Virus record (IMG/VR): IMGVR_UViG_2913147268_000002
Origin: a virus
Taxonomy: Duplodnaviria; Heunggongvirae; Uroviricota; Caudoviricetes
Reading direction: 5' to 3' (one strand)
Length of the DNA stretch: 48,006 nucleotides
Below the pieces are notes generated by a model. It was not told the origin of the DNA. It made no database searches and saw only the letters and a list, made by a program, of their open reading frames with translations. Positions 1-18,556 of this stretch are shown here, piece by piece; the stretch's first letter is position 1; every line of letters starts with the position of its first letter. The translations under genes were made by a program, and so were the position numbers.

Positions 1-522
1 CTAAAATCGTCGCTGGATACCCTGAAGGCTCACTTTCACCTTCACGCCGTCGGTGACGGACTGAACCTCCACGCTGACCGGATTGCCACTTCCGTCAACC
101 AGGCTTATCAGCGTGGTACCGGAGGATGGCAGCGTGATTTCACGGTCGAGCGTCAGCGTCCGGGTCTGGCTGTTCACCGCCAGCACACGACCACCGGTGC
201 TGATACCGGCATAGTCATCATCGCAGATTTCAATGACATCCCCCGGTACATGGCGAAGCCCTTCAGCACCCACGCTGAAGTCCACGGTCTGCGTTTCCAG
301 CAGCTCCGTTTTAATCAGCCACAGCCCGGCGCGGTGTGCCTGCCCCCGGCTGGTACAGCCAAAGGCATCCATCTTCGTGACGTTACGGCCGTAACGGGCA
401 ATGGCCTGCGTATCCTCCACGAGCTCTGTCGCCGTCTCCCAGCCGTTATCCGGGTCAATCCAGTTCACCTCAACGGCATTATGGCGGTCCTTCAGGGCGC
501 TGAAGCGCCGATTTTCCGGCGG
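1..522 (-). pseudogene. Internal fragment of lambda-type tail tip / host specificity protein J (about 170 aa)
   Basis: C-terminal 170 aa of the 1..1092 ORF (FSALKDRHNAVEVNWIDP...[16 protein letters not shown]) match the central region of lambda gpJ as I recall it. Homology stops at nt 28 and is followed by 8 unrelated codons and a stop. The upstream 190 aa of that ORF is an Arg-rich out-of-frame artefact. Confidence 0.7.
28..69. repeat. 42-bp direct repeat, copy 1 (encodes J residues [14 protein letters not shown])
   Basis: gctcactttcaccttcacgccgtcggtgacggactgaacctc is identical at 28-69 and 4077-4118. Confidence 0.9.
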
Positions 523-1486
523 CGGTGGCACTGGCTGAGGCCTGCCCGGCACTTGTTGACGCTGCACTGGCAGACGACGCAGCCGCTGTTTTTGAGCCTG
601 CCGCAGCCGAGGCGCTCTGTCCCGCTGCCGTTTCAGAAGACCTGGCGTTCGTCTCTGACGTTTTTGCCGCCTTCGCGGAATTTCCTGCCGCTGTTGCCGA
701 GGAAGCTGCGCTACTGGCGCTCGAGGATGCGTTCGTTTCTGATGATTTTGCCGCCTCTTTTGAAGCCGCCGCATCCCGGGCTGAAGTGGCAGCTTCTGAC
801 GCTTTCGTGGTCGCGGTGGATGCAGAAGTGGCTGCTGATTGTTGTGACGCTGCAGCATTCGTTTCTGACGTTTTCGCGGCACTGGCACTGGTAGCTGCCG
901 CGCTTTTTGAGGACTCTGCAGCGGCAGCACTTTTTGATGCTTCAGTGGCCTTTGTTGATGCCGTTCCTGCGCTGGAAGTCGCTGACTGAGCCGACGACGC
1001 GGCCTGTCCGGCTGACGTGCTGGCTGCGCGTGCTGAGCCTGCAGCATCAGTCGCATGGGTTGCCGCCTCACGGGCTGATGTGCTGGCATCACTGGCTGAC
1101 TTCTTCGCGGCTGCCGTGTTCTGTGCCACCACGGACGCGTTACGCGCCACCTCTTCCACCATCAGCTCAAAACGGCGCAGTGCCTCCGGACGGGCATCAT
1201 CCTCCGTCATGGCACCGAGAAAATCATTCAGCGTACCGGGTCGGGAATCTTCATACACTGTGATGGTCCCGGCATGTGACGGCGGGAATCCTTCCACCAA
1301 CAGAATAACGCTGTACTGACCGTACTCAACGTCCATACTGTAACGCCCGGCTTCATCCGGATTTTCAGATGCCAGCGTGTTCACCACCACCGTGGTACTG
1401 TTACGTTTTGCTTTCAGCTGGATTGTGCAGTTCTGTACCGGTTTTCCTGTGCCGTCTTTCAGTACACCTGAAATTTTTACTGCCAT
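479..1486 (-). pseudogene. Side tail fibre (Stf-like) N-terminal fragment, 3'-truncated
   Basis: MAVKISGVLKDGTGKPVQNCTIQLKAKRNSTTVVVNT... followed by Ala/Ser/Thr-rich repeats typical of lambdoid Stf. Homology ends near nt 506 (..AAGKSA) where it abuts the J fragment in another frame. Confidence 0.7.
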
Positions 1487-1494
1487 ATTCACCC

Positions 1495-1524
1495 CACAAA
1501 AAAGCCCGCCTGAACCGGCGGGCT
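1495..1524 (-). terminator. Intrinsic terminator downstream of lom
   Basis: Minus-strand hairpin AGCCCGCC-GGTTCA-GGCGGGCT followed by TTTTTTGTGGGG. Confidence 0.6.
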
Positions 1525-1550
1525 GTCATAACACTGTGTTACCTGGCTAA

Positions 1551-2150
1551 TCAGAATTTATAACCAACACCCACGATGAACCCGTCAGTGCGCCAGTCAC
1601 CGCTGCCGGAGCCTTCATAAGCGACATCAACGGCCACGGATTCGGTCGGGTTAAACTGCACGCCAGCCCCCCACGCCAGAGACGTGTTGCTGTGGCGACC
1701 GTCATCACTTCCGGTCAGCACATCGTGCGTTTTCCCCGTATTGTCGGTCACCTGCAGATAATCCCCGGAGAAAGTCGACACACGGCTGTAAGCCACACCC
1801 GCCATCGCATACGCGCTGAACCATTCATTCACGCGCACAGACGGCCCCGCCATTACGCTGAACCAGCGGTTACGAACGGAATCTTCATGCCAGCGGGTAT
1901 CGCTGTAACGGGTCAGCTGGCGATTCTTGTCTCCTGCATAGCTGAATGACGTCACCAGCCCCAGTGTGTCCGTAAACTCATAACGGTATTTCACGTTAAT
2001 CCCGTTCAGATCATCACTGCCGGGGACGTTCATCGAGGCATGAAGATACCCCGCGCTCAGCGTGGACTGATGTTCAGACGCCCATGCAGGCGCACCGGAT
2101 ACGGCCAGACAAATGGCTGCGGACAAAATGGCTGCACAAACTTTACGCAT
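1551..2150 (-). CDS. lom: Outer membrane protein Lom (Ail/Lom family)
   Basis: 199 aa with signal peptide (MRKVCAAILSAAICLAVSGAPAWA) and beta-barrel ending ...GVGYKF; sits immediately downstream of J as in lambda. Confidence 0.85.
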   Translation of the reverse strand: MRKVCAAILSAAICLAVSGAPAWASEHQSTLSAGYLHASMNVPGSDDLNGINVKYRYEFTDTLGLVTSFSYAGDKNRQLTRYSDTRWHEDSVRNRWFSVMAGPSVRVNEWFSAYAMAGVAYSRVSTFSGDYLQVTDNTGKTHDVLTGSDDGRHSNTSLAWGAGVQFNPTESVAVDVAYEGSGSGDWRTDGFIVGVGYKF

Positions 2151-2171
2151 AATTACCTCTCGCTTTTCTGC

Positions 2172-2200
2172 AATAAAAAAGGCGTCATTCCTGACGCCCT
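2172..2200 (-). terminator. Intrinsic terminator downstream of the J fragment
   Basis: Minus-strand hairpin GGCGTCA-GGAA-TGACGCC followed by TTTTTTATT. Confidence 0.6.
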
Positions 2201-2220
2201 TTATTGGGGTTATAAATATT

Positions 2221-4118
2221 TCAACGAATACTGATGCCGGAAGCGGCTTTTTTGGTCACAATCACCGTACAGTCGGTGATATTGCCTGCCCCCTGATTGC
2301 CTTTCTGGAAAATCTTAAACTCCAGAGTGACGCTTCCCCTGCCACTCGGCATATCAATAACCGCACTGTAACTACCGGGAATGGCCCCTTTAGTTTCTCT
2401 GGATGCGATTAATACGCCGTTTTTGCGAACTTCAAAACCATAACCCGTGTATCGCGTGCCTCCTGGGTTATTTCCGCTCCCCGGATCGTCATACGCTATA
2501 CCGTTAAAAATAATGGGCGGAATAATAATCTGGCGGTCAAAGTTATGATCATCGCTGATGGTGACTGTAACCGTACCGTTTGGTGTTTCCGTGTTACCCC
2601 ACGTACCGACTTTTTTCGGGAAGGCTTTTGATACAGCTTTAACGAAATCTCCTCTGACCTGGGTCGCCTCCAGCATGCCCTTAATCGTACAGTTCTGGTT
2701 AATCGTGACATTGTTGAGCGTTCCTGAGTTCGCATTCACACTGCCACTGATATCCGCATTTTTCGCCGTCAGTCTCCCGTCTGATGTCAGGGAAAATGCC
2801 GGAGGATTACCGCCGCTGGTAATGGTGGGGGCCGTCAGGCGTTTCAGGAACACTTCATTCATGAATATCTGATCGCCCTGACCAACAAACATCGGCTTTG
2901 TGTTGCCATTCGCAGGATTAATCATCGCAATCCTGTCTGCTGCCAGCAGCACCTGACTCTGCATGCCGTCAGGGGTGTTCTCAATACCGGCACCGATACC
3001 CGCAATATAAAGGCGTCCGTCCTGCATCTGCTGCAGCTTCACTGCCCACATGCTGTTCAGGTTATTATTTGTATCAACCTGAACCTTCTGTATCTGCTGG
3101 ATCGCTGCACTCTGGTCTTCCAGTTTCTTATTGACGGTCTGTGTTATTTCATTGCTGACATCCGTTATGGACGTCCTGATTTCAGTCAGGTCAGGCGCAA
3201 GCTGACCGTTATCAATCTGCGTCCACAGCTCCTGAGCCAGATGGGTTTTCCCTATCTCGCCTTTGAAAAAATCCAGATAGCCTGATGCATCATCACTCGG
3301 CTGACCGACAGCCTCCACGAATGCCGATTTGCCAACGGTGTTCACACTGCGAACGTAAAAATAATAATCATGGCCCGGTTTGATATTGATACTGGCGGCT
3401 ATCCAGTACAGTGCCGTACCAAGATAACGCGCGCTGGTTTCAACCTGCCTGATATCCGCAATCCGTTTTTCCGAGAACCAGAACTCAAACTGTACCGTCG
3501 GGTCATAAACCGCAAGATGCGGCGTGGCGGTTATCTGAAAATAGCCCGGCGTCAGCTCAATCCGCGACGGCGCTGCCGGTGCGGCAATCCGGAACGATAC
3601 CGACGCCGGATCGCCCTGCTGCCCCCACGCATTTACTGCCCGGACTGTCAGCCTGTAGTTCCCCAGCGCCAGTTGTGTGAAGCGGTATGTGGTTTCCGTC
3701 GTCCGGGCCGTGCTGACCAGCCGCTCACGGCCGTCATCCGCTGCCACGGTCAGGCGAAGCAGGAAGCTCACGCCCTTCACCACCTTCGGCGTGTCCCAGC
3801 GGGCCAGCACCTGGTATTCCCCGCTGTCTGCGGTGACTTCTGCGGTCAGGTGCTGCACCGCTGGCGGCGTGACACCATTTACCGTGCAGCTCTGGTCGCC
3901 GTCAAAGTGCGCCCCGTTATCCACGATGGCCTCTTTTTCCGGTACATGCTGCACGGCGGTGATGGCATACGTGCCGTCGTCGTTCTCACGGATACTCACG
4001 CAGCGGAACAGGCGCTGGCGCAACGTCGGCAGCTTCAGCCCCCATACGCTGTATTCAGCAACGCCGTCAGGAACACGGCTCACTTTCACCTTCACGCCGT
4101 CGGTGACGGACTGAACCT
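2221..4118 (-). pseudogene. Tail tip / host specificity protein J, C-terminal about 630 aa (5'-truncated)
   Basis: [66 protein letters not shown]... is collinear with lambda gpJ through its C-terminus. Homology continues without a start codon to the 42-bp repeat at 4077-4118, where it abuts Stf-like sequence. Confidence 0.8.
4077..4118. repeat. 42-bp direct repeat, copy 2
   Basis: Identical to 28-69. Confidence 0.9.
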
Positions 4119-5548
4119 CAAGCCGTGCTTGCGATTTGGGTATTATTCGTTCCCTGTCGCGCAGTTGGTGTTGTTGGCGTTCCGGTCAGTGCAGGACTAT
4201 TTAAGGGCGCTTTCTTGTTCGTTTCACCCATTACCGCCTTAACCGCTTTTGGCGTTGCCGCCAGTGACTCGGAAGTGCTGTTGGTCGCACTGCTGAGCTG
4301 TACTATCCCCTTTTTCGTCGTGCTCGCATCCTCAAGCGCCACGGCGGATGCAATATCCTCTGCCCGTTTTGCCGCTGTCTCGGCGCGCGTTGCCGCGGAT
4401 TCCGCCGTACTTTTGCTCTGAGCTGCCGCCGTCGCACTGCCAGCTGCCTCTGTCGCCTTCGTGGATGCCGTCGTGGCGCTGCCCTTTGCTGCTGACGCCT
4501 GTCTGGTCGCCTCATCTTTTGAAGCAGACGCAGATGATGCCGATTCAATGACAGCTCCGGCGAGATGAATATTACCGCAGCCAGTATCAGTAATGATTTT
4601 ATTATTGCCATAAGACCAGGAACCCTTGCACATCCAGTATGGATGGTTAAATGCTCCCTGAGAATCCAGCCACTCGATAAACTGTGCAGTCGTCCAGTTT
4701 CCTGTTGTTGTGCTTACTGACCCACCGAAGGCACGGCAGGCACCAATATTTTTCGTAAAGGTGTCTTTGCCAGGGATATCCGCACCGTTCTGATCTTTCT
4801 GCAGACGTTTCTCAGCATTGTCATTGGCTGCTTTTACTGCCTTTGGCGTTGCCGCCAGCGTTTCAGACGTGCTGTTGGTCGCGCTGCTTAGCTGGATTAT
4901 CCCTTTCTGTGCTGTCGTTGCATCCTGTGCGGTGTATTTCCCGGTGTCGCCGCCGGGCGAGGGTTTGATTTCCGGTGCCTTACCACTAATGAAGGCTAAG
5001 GTGCGACCGGCTACGTTCAGAATAGCAGTTGCCATACGATCGGGAATAATGCCACGACGCGCCCATGAGCTGAAATGCGTCGGGCGATTTGATGATACCC
5101 AGTTTTTGTTCGTTCGGGATGCCGAACCGTAATAACCAGACCCGGCAATATCAGGATCTTCTGACGGGTTGTTTGTCGGTGTATTAACTCCGCTACCATC
5201 GGTCATAAAGGGAACAAAATAAATCTGCTGGGATTCTTTACCTTTATATGCACCATATACCACTTCATATTGCGTACCGTGTTCTTGTTTCCACGCGTAT
5301 GTCGTGTCGCCACAAATCCAGGGGACTGATGCCGGACTTCCACCGTGACACTGCGCCGCCAGCCCGGCAAGGTCAGCACGGAACTGCTGTACCATTGCAA
5401 GAAATGCTGCTGGCTGCTGGGCGTAACTGGCATTCGTCATATCGAATTCCCCCTGCATCCAGCATATCGCCAGCAAAACGTTTTTCGGGTTTTTCTGCAA
5501 TGCTGCCTTCGTGCGGAAAAGCAGATCCTGATATAACGGCTTACCCAC
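4118..5548 (-). pseudogene. Chimeric ORF: SASA-type esterase fragment + tail-fibre tip segment + Stf central segment
   Basis: N-terminal part has ICWMQGEFDM, resembling the WYQGES motif of sialate O-acetylesterase (SASA) domains, but lacks the N-terminal half of such a domain. Middle has KGIIQLSSATNSTSETLAATPKAVKA and a Cys-containing tip (GNIHLAGAVIE). C-terminal part (SASSASASKDEATRQ...[10 protein letters not shown]) matches the lambda Stf central region and ends at a stop formed at the J-repeat junction. Confidence 0.5.
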
Positions 5549-6171
5549 TCCCCAGCGAGCCGAATCCTGACTGGCCCCCGTGGACTCGCTGAATGTCCCC
5601 TCCGTGCCCTGGGTGAATGCCGAACCACCACGACAGCATGGTACCAGCAGGATCCCCGCGTTATTAGGGATATACGGAAGCAGTTTTTTGGCAATATGTA
5701 AGCCCTGTCCGACACAGCCGTACTGCCCTTATACCCGGCATCTTTCGGACGATACGGCCCCTGATAATGTTCCGCGAACAGAATGCGCTCTGTGGCGGGG
5801 AAATACGCCCGCAGGCTTTCCTTGTTGCATCCGTTCCAGCGTCCGGACGGCTTCGCCCAGATAATATGGTTCAGCACACTGAAGCGTTCACGCATCATGA
5901 TTTCGATATCAGATGCCAGGCGATGACCACAGAACAGGTAAAGACTTCCGGCAGGTTTCAGCACCCGCCAGAACTGCGCCAGACACTGGTCCAGCCACTT
6001 CAGGTAATCATCGTCGCCCTTCCACTGGTTATCCCAGCCCTCAGGCTTCACTTTAAAGTACGGCGGGTCCGTGACTATCAGGTCAACAGAATTTTCGGGT
6101 AACGACCGGATAAATTCCAGGCAGTCGGCGTTGATTAACTCACAACTGGATATTTTTACAGTATTAGCCAT
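5437..6171 (-). pseudogene. N6-adenine DNA methyltransferase, 3'-truncated (homology about 5720-6171)
   Basis: N-terminal 150 aa carry the motif IV signature LIVTDPPYF and IIWAKP typical of beta-class N6-adenine methylases. No FxGxG AdoMet motif follows; the rest of the ORF is low-complexity read-through. Confidence 0.6.
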
Positions 6172-6300
6172 AGATCAATAAGCACTTCTCTGATAGGCTC
6201 ATACCGCTTTTGCGCAAAGCAGATGGGCCTGAGGTTTGCTTGTGACCCCAACGCATGAGCAGATGGCTGGAATAAAATCAAAGCAATAAGCAGTGTCGTG

Positions 6301-6327
6301 AAACCACCTTCGGGTGGTTTTTTTGTA
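6301..6327 (+). terminator. Hairpin plus T-tract between the methylase remnant and int
   Basis: AAACCACC-TTCG-GGTGGTTT followed by TTTTTTTG on the plus strand; weaker in the minus orientation. Confidence 0.5.
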
Positions 6328-6387
6328 TCTTCTTTCTCATTTCCGAAGATGCGTCCGAAGATGATTTTTCTCTGGACGCATCATCAT

Positions 6388-7434
6388 TCATTTTCTCTGG
6401 CCACCAACTACGGGCACTACTTTAACTTTCCGGTCATATGCTGCTGTCTGTCGCGGGTTCTTATGCCCGGAAATTGCTTGCTTCTCTTCCAGGCTGCCTT
6501 CCAGATCAGAGATACCTTTTGCTTTCAGATCATGAAATGTGAAGTCTATTTGCAGATGAGGATATTTTTCCTGTGCTGCCGCTTTGACATCACGCCAACG
6601 AGAGTTAAAACCATCACGGGTATACTTGCCACCGGTAGTTTGATGAATCACAAACAGGCTACTGATTCCCGTTTTTAATGGCAGAGAACGAGCCAGAGCT
6701 ATCGCTTTCTGCAGACGAGGCGACCAGGCTTTGATTTGCTTAACGCCGGTTTTTCCCTGACGAATGTAGATCCCGGAATCGAACAGCTGGTCTTTCTGCA
6801 ATGAAAGTACATCACTCTGTCTGGCCACGCATAAGTAGGCAATCTCCATTGCTACGCGAACAACATCAGGAGACACTTCATAAACGGCCTGATATTCTTC
6901 ATCCGTAATATAACGTTCGCGAGCTTTCTCTTTAAACTGTTTAACTCCCTGACAAGGATTCCTCTGAACATAACCTCGTTCATAACCCCAACGGAATACC
7001 CGGGACATAAAGCTTTTTTCCCTGTTTGCCTGAGTTCGGCTTGATAAACCGCGTTGATCCATATAGCGCCGAATATGTTCAGGTTTGATTTTATCCGGGT
7101 CGATCTTCCCGAAGACAGGCAGAACTTTTCCGGAATATTTTGTGTAGTCTTTCCGGGTTTCGACTGCCAAATCCATAAAATCAGGGGAGGTCATGAATTG
7201 TTCCGTGAGCGCCTGAAAAGTATTTCTTTCTTTTTCGTCACCGACCGCTTTTTCATATGCCAGCCATACGGCTGATCGTGGTGCATCCAATGCGCACAGG
7301 CGTATCGCTTTGTTATCTTTATTCCTGAATTCGTAGGCCGCTTTGCCCTGGTAAACACGAGGCGGCATCCAGTTATCTGCTGGGTTCTTTCTCTTTCCGG
7401 CCATTAAATATTGCTCCAAAATCAGGTTCATCAT
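6388..7434 (-). CDS. int: Tyrosine recombinase, phage integrase
   Basis: 348 aa with lambda-Int-like layout; C-terminal catalytic region includes HDLKAKGISD and ...ISGHKNPRQTAAYDR; start may be the internal MAGKRK. Confidence 0.9.
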   Translation of the reverse strand: MMNLILEQYLMAGKRKNPADNWMPPRVYQGKAAYEFRNKDNKAIRLCALDAPRSAVWLAYEKAVGDEKERNTFQALTEQFMTSPDFMDLAVETRKDYTKYSGKVLPVFGKIDPDKIKPEHIRRYMDQRGLSSRTQANREKSFMSRVFRWGYERGYVQRNPCQGVKQFKEKARERYITDEEYQAVYEVSPDVVRVAMEIAYLCVARQSDVLSLQKDQLFDSGIYIRQGKTGVKQIKAWSPRLQKAIALARSLPLKTGISSLFVIHQTTGGKYTRDGFNSRWRDVKAAAQEKYPHLQIDFTFHDLKAKGISDLEGSLEEKQAISGHKNPRQTAAYDRKVKVVPVVGGQRK

Positions 7435-7636
7435 CTTTTCGCGTCGTCACCTCCTGTAAATTGCGAAATTTTATTGGGTTCATGAAATGGCCCCAGGTTG
7501 TTTTTGGGTGTCCGTCAGCCCTTTCCATGAAGAAAATTCCAGCCCGGCGAAGAGCCTCACATTGCTTTGATTTAAGTGGGCTTCCCGTCAGCTCGACCAT
7601 TTCTTCTCTGGTGATTATGTCGTGATCGCTTTTCAT
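7373..7636 (-). CDS. Putative excisionase / small DNA-binding protein
   Basis: 87 aa immediately upstream of and overlapping the int start; call rests on position and size, not on a recognised motif. Confidence 0.45.
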   Translation of the reverse strand: MKSDHDIITREEMVELTGSPLKSKQCEALRRAGIFFMERADGHPKTTWGHFMNPIKFRNLQEVTTRKDDEPDFGAIFNGRKEKEPSR

Positions 7637-17495: not shown

Positions 17496-17719
17496 ATTGA
17501 CTTAGAAAAAGTCCGGGGCTATAGTTTCCGCGCAGCCGCAAAATCGGTTGCCGGGATTGGCGTCCCGGATATCTAAGTGACGCATAGCCGCGTTAGCGGT
17601 TTTTTTATGTGTTAGGCACGGCCACATTCGCATTATGGTGGGCTGTGTGGGGGCTTCTGTGGAAGCGCCGGGTTCACTTAGCCGGTTACGCCAACCCTGC
17701 ACAGCTCACCACCAGATGA

Positions 17720-18556
17720 TTGGCGTCGCTGGTGGTGATGAAAAAAACACTAAGTGAGGCCACTGCGATGACAGTCCAAATATCTGCGGAATCCCTTTCT
17801 CCGCTACATCATAACCAACTTCCCGTCATCACTACTGAATTGCTTGCCAGTTTGTATGGCACGGAAGTAAATGGTATCCAGCAAAACTTCAAGCGCAACA
17901 TCGCCAGATTTGTCGTAGGAAAGCATTTTTTTAAGCTGGAAGGTAATGAATTACGCGACTTCAAAAACAGACTGACAGATAGTCAGTCAGTTGCTAAACA
18001 TACCCGATCCCTCATTCTCTGGACAGAACGCGGCGCAGCTCGCCATGCCAAAATGCTGGAAACAGAACAGGCCTGGGAAGTTTTCGAAAAGCTGGAAGAT
18101 TGTTATTTTAGCCAGCGTCCAGAGAGGCGGAGTACAACTACCGATGACCGTACTCCCTTGCGTGATGCCGTTAATATACTGGTCGGCAAGAAAGGCATGA
18201 TGTATCCCGATGCCTACACCATGATTCATCAACGCTTCGCCGTCTCTCACATAGAACAACTGTCACAGACGCAAATGTTAGAGGCGATTGAATACATCCA
18301 CTGCCTGCTACTCGATGAAAATCACCCAACCATTCCAGATTTTTCTTTTATCACCACTATCAAAAATGGAAAAGTGACCGGGATGCGCCATGTTGCCAAA
18401 GGCGAACATCTGATGACCTTTGACGCTTTCAAAGAGATCGCTGAGCGGGCAGGGTATCTGGTGATCCACAGCGACAATCTGCGAAGTATGACACTGGATA
18501 AATTGATGGTAATGGGGAAAAAGTCGGCTATATCCGTTGCTAATTCAGCATTTTGA
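17720..18556 (+). CDS. ORF6N-domain protein, putative antirepressor
   Basis: N-terminal region LPVITTELLASLYGTEVNGIQQNFKRNIARF...LILWTERGAARHAKMLETEQAWEVFEKLED resembles the ORF6N/KilA-N-related domain of phage antirepressors; start uncertain (17720, 17738 or 17768). Confidence 0.6.
   Translation: MASLVVMKKTLSEATAMTVQISAESLSPLHHNQLPVITTELLASLYGTEVNGIQQNFKRNIARFVVGKHFFKLEGNELRDFKNRLTDSQSVAKHTRSLILWTERGAARHAKMLETEQAWEVFEKLEDCYFSQRPERRSTTTDDRTPLRDAVNILVGKKGMMYPDAYTMIHQRFAVSHIEQLSQTQMLEAIEYIHCLLLDENHPTIPDFSFITTIKNGKVTGMRHVAKGEHLMTFDAFKEIAERAGYLVIHSDNLRSMTLDKLMVMGKKSAISVANSAF

Follow-up and report, generated by a model that had tools for sequence, protein, structure and literature searches.

Temperate phages that integrate by crossover in the anticodon loop of a tRNA gene, and that themselves carry the 3′ part of that gene, include P22 and HP1; this mode of insertion is said to figure in the classification of tRNA-gene integrations drawn up by Williams in 2002. 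Here we examine an attachment site that is probably of this kind in a 48,006-nt stretch of DNA from a tailed phage (Caudoviricetes; IMG/VR record IMGVR_UViG_2913147268_000002; the whole stretch is hereafter called the window), where a spacer of 216 bp (6172-6387) separates the 3′ end of an integrase gene (int) from a truncated adenine methyltransferase gene and a fragment of an esterase gene. The closest described systems for these two genes are M.EcoGII and NanS-p. M.EcoGII is a prophage-borne non-specific adenine methyltransferase (PMC5778455), with a catalytic fold formed by residues 1-134 and 260-349 and a recognition domain at residues 160-237 (PMC11551740). NanS-p of Shiga toxin (Stx) phages has been described as having a DUF1737-SASA-C-terminal-domain architecture, and its gene lies in a late region of the order Q - stx - nanS-p - S, as in 933W (PMC10462455).

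We consider it likely that the region beside int consists of a deletion-scarred piece of a lambdoid prophage set against a truncated attachment (att) block and the phage-specific P′ arm of another prophage, and that the abutment of the two is artefactual. The join itself, at 6270/6271, is most likely a concatenation of contigs in a gapped pseudo-molecule and not a junction in a living chromosome. The coordinates of the features are collected in Table 1.

The prophage to which int belongs is found complete in Escherichia coli SK1144, where the same int directly follows leuZ. It is there a self-contained unit of 42.6 kb, located between leuZ and yecA, in which the head genes are lambda-like and the genes of the contractile tail (baseplate, sheath, tube, and tail) are P2-like. 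A perfect direct repeat of 125 bp stands at its two ends, and the copies begin 42,611 bp apart. From 6270 to 48006 the window is 99.98% identical to this prophage over 41.7 kb, with six mismatches and two gaps, and its own attR is expected ~0.8 kb past the window end, at the equivalent of 48,813-48,937. The best matches of the integrase in PDB are to lambda integrase, and the identical protein occurs in 19,313 blocks of the assembly collection.

The 125-bp repeat begins in the leuZ anticodon loop (ATTTAAAATCCC...), takes in the leuZ 3′ end and the next 12 bp, and closes with a segment of 57 bp that has the terminator of the glyW-cysT-leuZ operon; this whole extent would be the target block of the 42.6-kb prophage. 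A P2-like prophage found at leuZ has its edge of identity no more than 1 nt from this anticodon-loop position, and the integrases of the two prophages are only 27% identical over 123 aa. Because two independent elements have the same left edge of identity, Int would probably carry out strand exchange in the leuZ anticodon loop, and the phage-borne leuZ 3′ half and terminator would then rebuild leuZ at attL. The prophage resembles the described anticodon-loop integrators in having a lambda-family Int and Xis beside a block that restores the leuZ 3′ half and terminator and in being flanked by a perfect direct repeat. It differs from them in the length of its block (125 bp), as the operon terminator is included, and in that the crossover is here placed from block edges, the crossover part itself not being in the window.

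In the window, only the last 56-57 bp of the block are present. Identity with the empty K-12 site begins at 6270/6271, 13 nt after the leuZ 3′ end, and continues to 6326, where homology to that site stops; attL is thus cut 69 bp short, and the window contains neither the leuZ anticodon loop nor the rest of leuZ. The 56-57-bp segment (6270/6271-6326) is single-copy within the window, is present in 5409 of 5426 complete Escherichia coli genomes, and has its chromosomal place between the glyW-cysT-leuZ tRNA genes and yecA. The original prediction had placed a prophage boundary beside the 3′ end of int, within the spacer, and had proposed comparisons with an empty site and with the far end of the prophage. 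The boundary is borne out: the K-12 empty site aligns with the window from 6270 to 6326, the occupied SK1144 site aligns with it from 6270 as well, the direct repeat flanks the SK1144 prophage, and no att core was found elsewhere that would unite the two elements. The fibre remnant was also correctly put outside the int prophage, since the lambdoid tail-fibre/J material is not part of the self-contained unit of SK1144.

The other contexts of the identical Int show what is missing. The whole block was seen in seven of the eight that we inspected, and the eighth is a draft contig that ends 115 bases into the block. SK1144 and the O25b:H4-ST131 genomes share int, xis, and the P′ arm with the window, but to the left of their int come the complete block and leuZ, in place of which the window shows lambdoid DNA. 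In the remaining genomes that we examined, attL adjoins leuZ or a tandem P2-like prophage. The latter arrangement is seen in a tandem array at leuZ in GCA_026208095.1 (locus L023, 5017-6310), where int and the P′ arm are succeeded by the att block as far as the anticodon loop and, directly after it, by a P2-like prophage that has an integrase of its own. The P2-like Xuanwuvirus prophage 520873 (NC_049344) has the same leuZ target, with its identity beginning no more than 1 nt from the position given above, and can stand in tandem with the leuZ prophage but has a distant integrase and a different phage genome.

The spacer had been credited with a strong hairpin followed by a T-tract, and this part of the description stands: there is a stem-loop at 6300-6321 with a T-run to 6324 (minimum free energy, -14 kcal/mol; z = -3.1). 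Shuffled sequence also gives one terminator-like match per 1.3 kb, and we accept the hairpin as real because it is identical to the segment found in the 5409 genomes, not from its terminator-scan score. In K-12 it stands ~40 nt downstream of leuZ; the tRNA operon itself is not in the window. The hairpin is therefore to be read as the predicted terminator of the glyW-cysT-leuZ operon and not as a signal of the methylase gene or of int, and the copy in the window is most likely phage-borne. A search for small RNAs in the spacer with Rfam at a permissive threshold gave only STnc130, on this same hairpin and at 24 bits against a gathering threshold of 55, and was discarded. No tRNA gene was found in the whole window.

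Past the homology to K-12, the 61 positions up to the int stop codon (6327-6387) are the same in all other copies of the leuZ prophage, or contexts of its integrase, that we inspected, and would represent the phage-specific P′ arm, with int and xis beyond it. The arm contains TCCGAAGATG twice (at 6342 and 6354) and an imperfect 17-nt inverted repeat (6345-6361/6369-6385). A further repeat, TTTTCTCTGG, also occurs twice (at 6366 and 6391), its second copy (6391-6400) sitting just inside the 3′ end of int. These repeats are candidates for arm-type Int sites or for an int terminator.

The left part of the spacer has a different origin. Its 99 bp up to 6270 are phage DNA and not host DNA, as they are contiguous with the methylase gene in other lambdoid late regions (loci L001 and L005). 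In both of these loci the phage sequence goes on differently after the equivalent of 6270, as CAGGTGCC..., and the lambdoid sequence is unbroken across this point in 1876 records. At position 6270 the lambdoid DNA breaks off within a late region and not at a phage end. The idea that the spacer is host DNA holding the whole left attachment site thus fails on both sides of the join, with lambdoid sequence to the left and 56-57 of 125 bp to the right.

The gene next to this DNA on the lambdoid side is a methylase remnant. The ORF at 5437-6171 (minus strand) matches Pfam N6_N4_Mtase (PF01555) at its N terminus over profile positions 1-105 of 221, with DLIVTDPPYF at residues 30-39 (DPPY, residues 35-38). 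Its residues 1-147 are identical to those of an intact allele (349 aa) carried by an O25b:H4-ST131 strain's genome, and the two diverge beyond, so that 147 of 349 methylase codons are retained; past them the open frame runs out of frame through esterase DNA, down to 5437. The intact allele covers positions 1-219 of the same 221-position profile and has FFMGSGS near residue 310, towards the C terminus. The C-terminal S-adenosylmethionine (AdoMet)-binding FxGxG motif and the complete domain with its central target recognition domain (TRD) are not in the window copy.

Compared with published M.EcoGII, the intact allele has 329 of 348 residues identical (95%) and the N-terminal 147 residues almost identical, the M.EcoGII sequence being machine-read from supplement file 5 of PMC11551740 and possibly containing errors. 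The intact allele is like M.EcoGII and M.EcoGI of E. coli O104:H4 (PMC5778455) in its length of 349 aa, and like M.EcoGII in its beta-class order of N-terminal DPPY, central TRD, and C-terminal FxGxG. In contrast, the window copy stops at residue 147. Missing from it are the TRD (residues 160-237) and the later half of the Rossmann fold, in which FxGxG lies (260-349). On these alignments we read the gene as the remnant of an M.EcoGII-type non-specific adenine methyltransferase, and since the recognition domain and the AdoMet-binding half are deleted, we infer that the 147-residue remnant is inactive.

The DNA into which the methylase frame runs is an internal esterase fragment. The matching segment of L005 (6001-6787) falls inside a gene for a 618-aa "SASA family carbohydrate esterase," which by Pfam contains DUF1737 (residues 3-50), SASA, and DUF6645. 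The fragment in the window lacks the N-terminal DUF1737, the start of SASA, and the C-terminal DUF6645, and it has no in-frame start codon. Its SASA match is weak, covering positions 101-157 of a 226-position profile at 25.8 bits, where the cut-off is 24.8. Esterase homology ends at 4944, with tail-fibre DNA beyond, and a 476-aa ORF (4118-5548) that overlaps the methylase ORF combines the weak partial SASA match with two tail-fibre repeats. Since the intact protein has the domain architecture described for NanS-p, we take the esterase piece to be of the NanS-p type.

The intact arrangement is seen in the complete O25b:H4-ST131 chromosome OX637964 (locus L005), where downstream of the antiterminator gene Q and all on one strand there follow the 349-aa methylase gene, three tRNA genes, a short pseudo-ORF, the 618-aa esterase gene, and a holin gene. 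The window is 99.8% identical to this locus over 5727-6270 (the start of the methylase gene and 99 bp upstream of it). The three tRNA genes (L005 7698-7947) are Arg-UCU, Arg-UCG, and one with a CAU anticodon, which is given as Ile by RefSeq and as Met by ARAGORN; such a set is typical of Stx-phage late regions.

The boundary between the methylase and esterase remnants can be placed with a four-way alignment of the window, the deleted allele of AZ146, and both sides of the intact allele. The intact allele carries the 9-bp sequence ACTGCCCTT at both edges of the deleted segment, and AZ146 keeps one copy, its allele being a clean loss of 1814 bp relative to the intact one. The window has the AZ146 allele minus six further bases, CGCCGT (codons Thr148-Ala149). 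This second loss is seen only in the window's record, the bases being present in the 49 complete E. coli genomes in which we found the contiguous deleted form, and it points either to an in-frame change private to this pseudogene or to an error in the sequence. Because the same deleted form occurs in these 49 complete genomes, the scar is one that came with the prophage and did not arise locally. RefSeq annotation of the deleted form (PGAP) shows a methylase pseudogene without its C terminus beside a DUF6645 pseudogene without its N terminus, and the pair is placed between Q and holin of a lambdoid prophage.

A deletion between the two 9-bp repeats would thus have taken out ~1.8 kb, comprising the TRD and AdoMet-binding half of the methylase gene, three phage tRNA genes, and the first 140 esterase codons. 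Both genes would be dead, and the out-of-frame ORF of 244 aa would be a by-product. That the methylase is truncated after about 150 aa and runs by way of a deletion into the esterase fragment had been recognized before and agrees with the 147 codons kept; the scar had been set at 5550-5720, which is esterase DNA in the wrong frame, the actual junction being a point, 5730/5731. We would read 4944-6270 as a decayed lambdoid late-region module of the order Q ... methylase - tRNA genes - (stx slot) - nanS-p - holin. The intact L005 module is like the 933W-type late region downstream of Q but has a short pseudo-ORF in the position of stx and no stx genes; the window differs further in having no tRNA genes, in the deletion of both gene ends, and in an esterase that stops at 4944.

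Table 1. Features at and around the join, by position in the window
Feature	Position	Strand	Basis
Internal fragment of NanS-p-type sialate O-acetylesterase gene (about codons 141-402 of 618)	4944..5730	-	787 bp 100% identical to L005 6001-6787
Deletion scar: 9-bp repeat ACTGCCCTT at 5722-5730, methylase-side DNA from 5731	5722..5731		Four-way alignment
Methylase remnant, first 147 codons (M.EcoGII-type, beta-class)	5731..6171	-	ATG at 6171; Pfam and intact-allele alignment
Lambdoid late-region DNA, 99 bp directly upstream of methylase	6172..6270		Contiguous with methylase in L001 and L005
Non-homologous abutment of lambdoid DNA and the inside of the att block	6270..6271		Alignment with K-12, SK1144, and AZ146
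Distal 56 bp of the 125-bp attL/attR identity block, with a copy of the glyW-cysT-leuZ terminator	6271..6326	+	K-12 and SK1144 alignments
Phage-specific P′ arm between identity block and int stop codon	6327..6387		No K-12 homology past 6326
Lambda-Int-family tyrosine integrase, 338 aa as called (ORF to 7434)	6388..7404	-	Pfam Phage_integrase and Phage_int_M; PHROG 1
Excisionase-like gene (DUF4224), overlapping the int start	7373..7636	-	Pfam DUF4224; PHROG 1266 excisionase, E = 5e-35

At 6270/6271 the two partners have at most one base in common (G), and the join itself is free of Ns. When a query that spans it was compared with the 5426 complete E. coli genomes, none covered more than 81% of the query, and a junction-spanning 25-mer was absent from the GTDB species representatives, the JGI metagenomes, and IMG/VR. 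An exact look-up of the chimeric 476-aa ORF returned a single record, CP027851.1 (GCA_003999775.1), which is listed in a published strain table as E. coli C4435, an adherent-invasive E. coli (AIEC) of serotype O25:H4, and which is not in the RefSeq complete-genome set. Window position 6270 corresponds to position 614,181 of this record.

This record has the features of a patchwork. At a distance of 973-1493 bp before the first base of the window, two runs of 10 Ns (L006 16522-16531 and 17033-17042) separate three pieces of dsdX whose ends duplicate by 110 and 186 bp. Going from murB to int, one first meets an rrn operon end and a scrap of tail-fibre/tfa sequence. Next come the three dsdX pieces, a J piece of 480 bp, and a J-lom-stf piece of 3.6 kb, and these are followed by tail-fibre scraps, the esterase-methylase piece of 1.3 kb, and finally the leuZ prophage. 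There are at least five blunt joins (0-1 bp in common) within 6.3 kb, with partners at widely separated loci in closed ST131 genomes. The ends of the J pieces at 27-506 and 507-4119 overlap by exactly 43 bp, and their order is reversed. The ssrA-site prophage of ST131 genomes contains the 3.6-kb J-lom-stf piece with 100% identity; the upstream J piece is 95.6% identical, and the tail-fibre scraps are in swapped order. Fragments flanking the join include multi-copy prophage tail, J, and late-region DNA as well as the rrn operon end. We rate the abutment at 6270/6271 as an assembly join because N-linkers, duplicated ends, misordered pieces, and blunt joins of this kind mark concatenated contigs. 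As a separate observation, the lambdoid tail region (27-506, 507-4119, and 4120-4943) is a non-colinear patchwork in which all joins are blunt.

Several observations weigh against this reading. The overlaps between piece ends vary (43, 56-57, 110, and 186 bp), and because there is no single overlap length, a simple model of contigs from a de Bruijn graph is inadequate. Position 6270 does not exactly coincide with a common mosaic boundary of lambdoid late regions, the nearest being ~13-38 bp off. The position of the crossover is given by the edges of the block only, and a free attP (the pattern P arm, block, P′ arm) had no match in IMG/VR or metagenomes. Finally, a real inversion of ~98 kb could give exactly the abutment seen at 6270/6271. 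As to the int phage itself, no record of it was found in the phage collection, which gave only 56-bp matches in P2-like records; these were rejected as free attP sequences, the records being prophage excerpts that include yecA.

The inversion would make the join a genuine rearrangement of strain C4435, between a lambdoid late region and attL of the leuZ prophage, alone or within a more complex patchwork. In closed ST131-type genomes, the lambdoid prophage with the deleted methylase and the leuZ prophage lie ~98 kb apart and in opposite orientation (in AVS0787, at 577 kb on the plus strand and 675 kb on the minus strand), so a single inversion fits both the order and the orientation seen in the window. 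The flanks are also of high quality, being 100% and 99.8% identical to ST131 references and 99.98% identical to the leuZ prophage over 41.7 kb, with no Ns at the join. An inversion nevertheless leaves unexplained the blunt join at 4943/4944, only 1.3 kb off, to a prophage ~1 Mb away, together with the dsdX and murB joins, the N-linkers, the duplicated ends, and the misordered J pieces; nor does the join, with its ≤1 bp of homology, occur a second time in any collection searched. We therefore hold a real rearrangement to be unlikely. If it had taken place, attL would have been cut between the crossover region and the P′ arm, so that prophage excision was lost, and the reciprocal junction would read leuZ plus 12 bp (...GGGAAAGATAAG) followed by CAGGTGCC.... 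It is slightly less likely still that the blunt joins are real throughout and that adherent-invasive C4435 carries a microhomology-free patchwork of prophage, dsdX, and rrn-flank fragments. If so, an attL severed from its crossover site would have locked an otherwise intact 42.6-kb prophage in the chromosome, and leuZ would be displaced to the other end of the ~98-kb inversion.

The original prediction implied a spacer of host DNA with a complete attL and, next to it, a lambdoid remnant as a possibly older adjacent prophage. In favour of such a model, int does stand at a prophage edge, an att-derived block with the hairpin is in the spacer, and lambdoid material lies outside the int prophage. 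We regard the model as very improbable, given that the left 99 bp of the spacer are lambdoid and not host, that 56-57 of the 125 block bases and no leuZ are present, and that the lambdoid side stops in the middle of a late region, and that in the other genomes examined attL is found next to leuZ or next to a P2-like prophage in tandem. How old the fibre remnant is relative to the int prophage is in any case not to be inferred from an abutment that is unique to one gapped pseudo-molecule. That the leuZ phage was integrated by its own Int at a secondary site in the lambdoid prophage, with exchange at 6270, is hardly credible. The abutment does fall inside the att identity block and beside int, but the left edge of identity in two independent elements, and with it the probable point of exchange, falls in the anticodon loop, 69 bp leftward of 6270, and the lambdoid sequence at the join is unlike the att block, with 1 bp in common. 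A simple deletion was also rejected as the origin of the join; it would remove leuZ, cysT, and pgsA, which are single-copy or essential genes, and there is no similarity to the att core.

Two further observations concern the leuZ prophage away from the join. At 17519-17716 (plus strand), Rfam gives c4-a1b1, isrK, and C4 antisense RNA one after another, each scoring above its gathering threshold (53-80 bits), followed by an ORF (17720-18556) that has an ORF6N domain by the SK1144 annotation; 17519-18556 is a C4/ant immunity module of the P1/P7 type inside the prophage. At 46962-47735, a gpD/VgrG-like late tail gene encodes 257 aa in place of 347 aa, owing to one extra A at 47729 that SK1144 lacks. 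Several other assemblies (L010, L014, and L015) have this frameshift too, so we regard it as a circulating allele and not as a record error. The proteins of the leuZ prophage are identical in thousands of assemblies, and no private variant was seen near the right end of the window.

All the real parts of this region are already known: a pseudogene of the M.EcoGII family, a NanS-p-type pseudogene, a widespread leuZ prophage, and its att repeat. The finding therefore carries little biological weight, the pseudogene pair at the scar being already known from a common lambdoid prophage of the ST131 type and the leuZ prophage with its 125-bp repeat being found in thousands of assemblies. Adjacency in this part of CP027851.1 is unfit for inferring the order or age of prophages or their tandem integration. 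The practical gains are an M.EcoGII-family identity for the truncated methylase gene and an attachment block for the leuZ prophage that is defined to the base.

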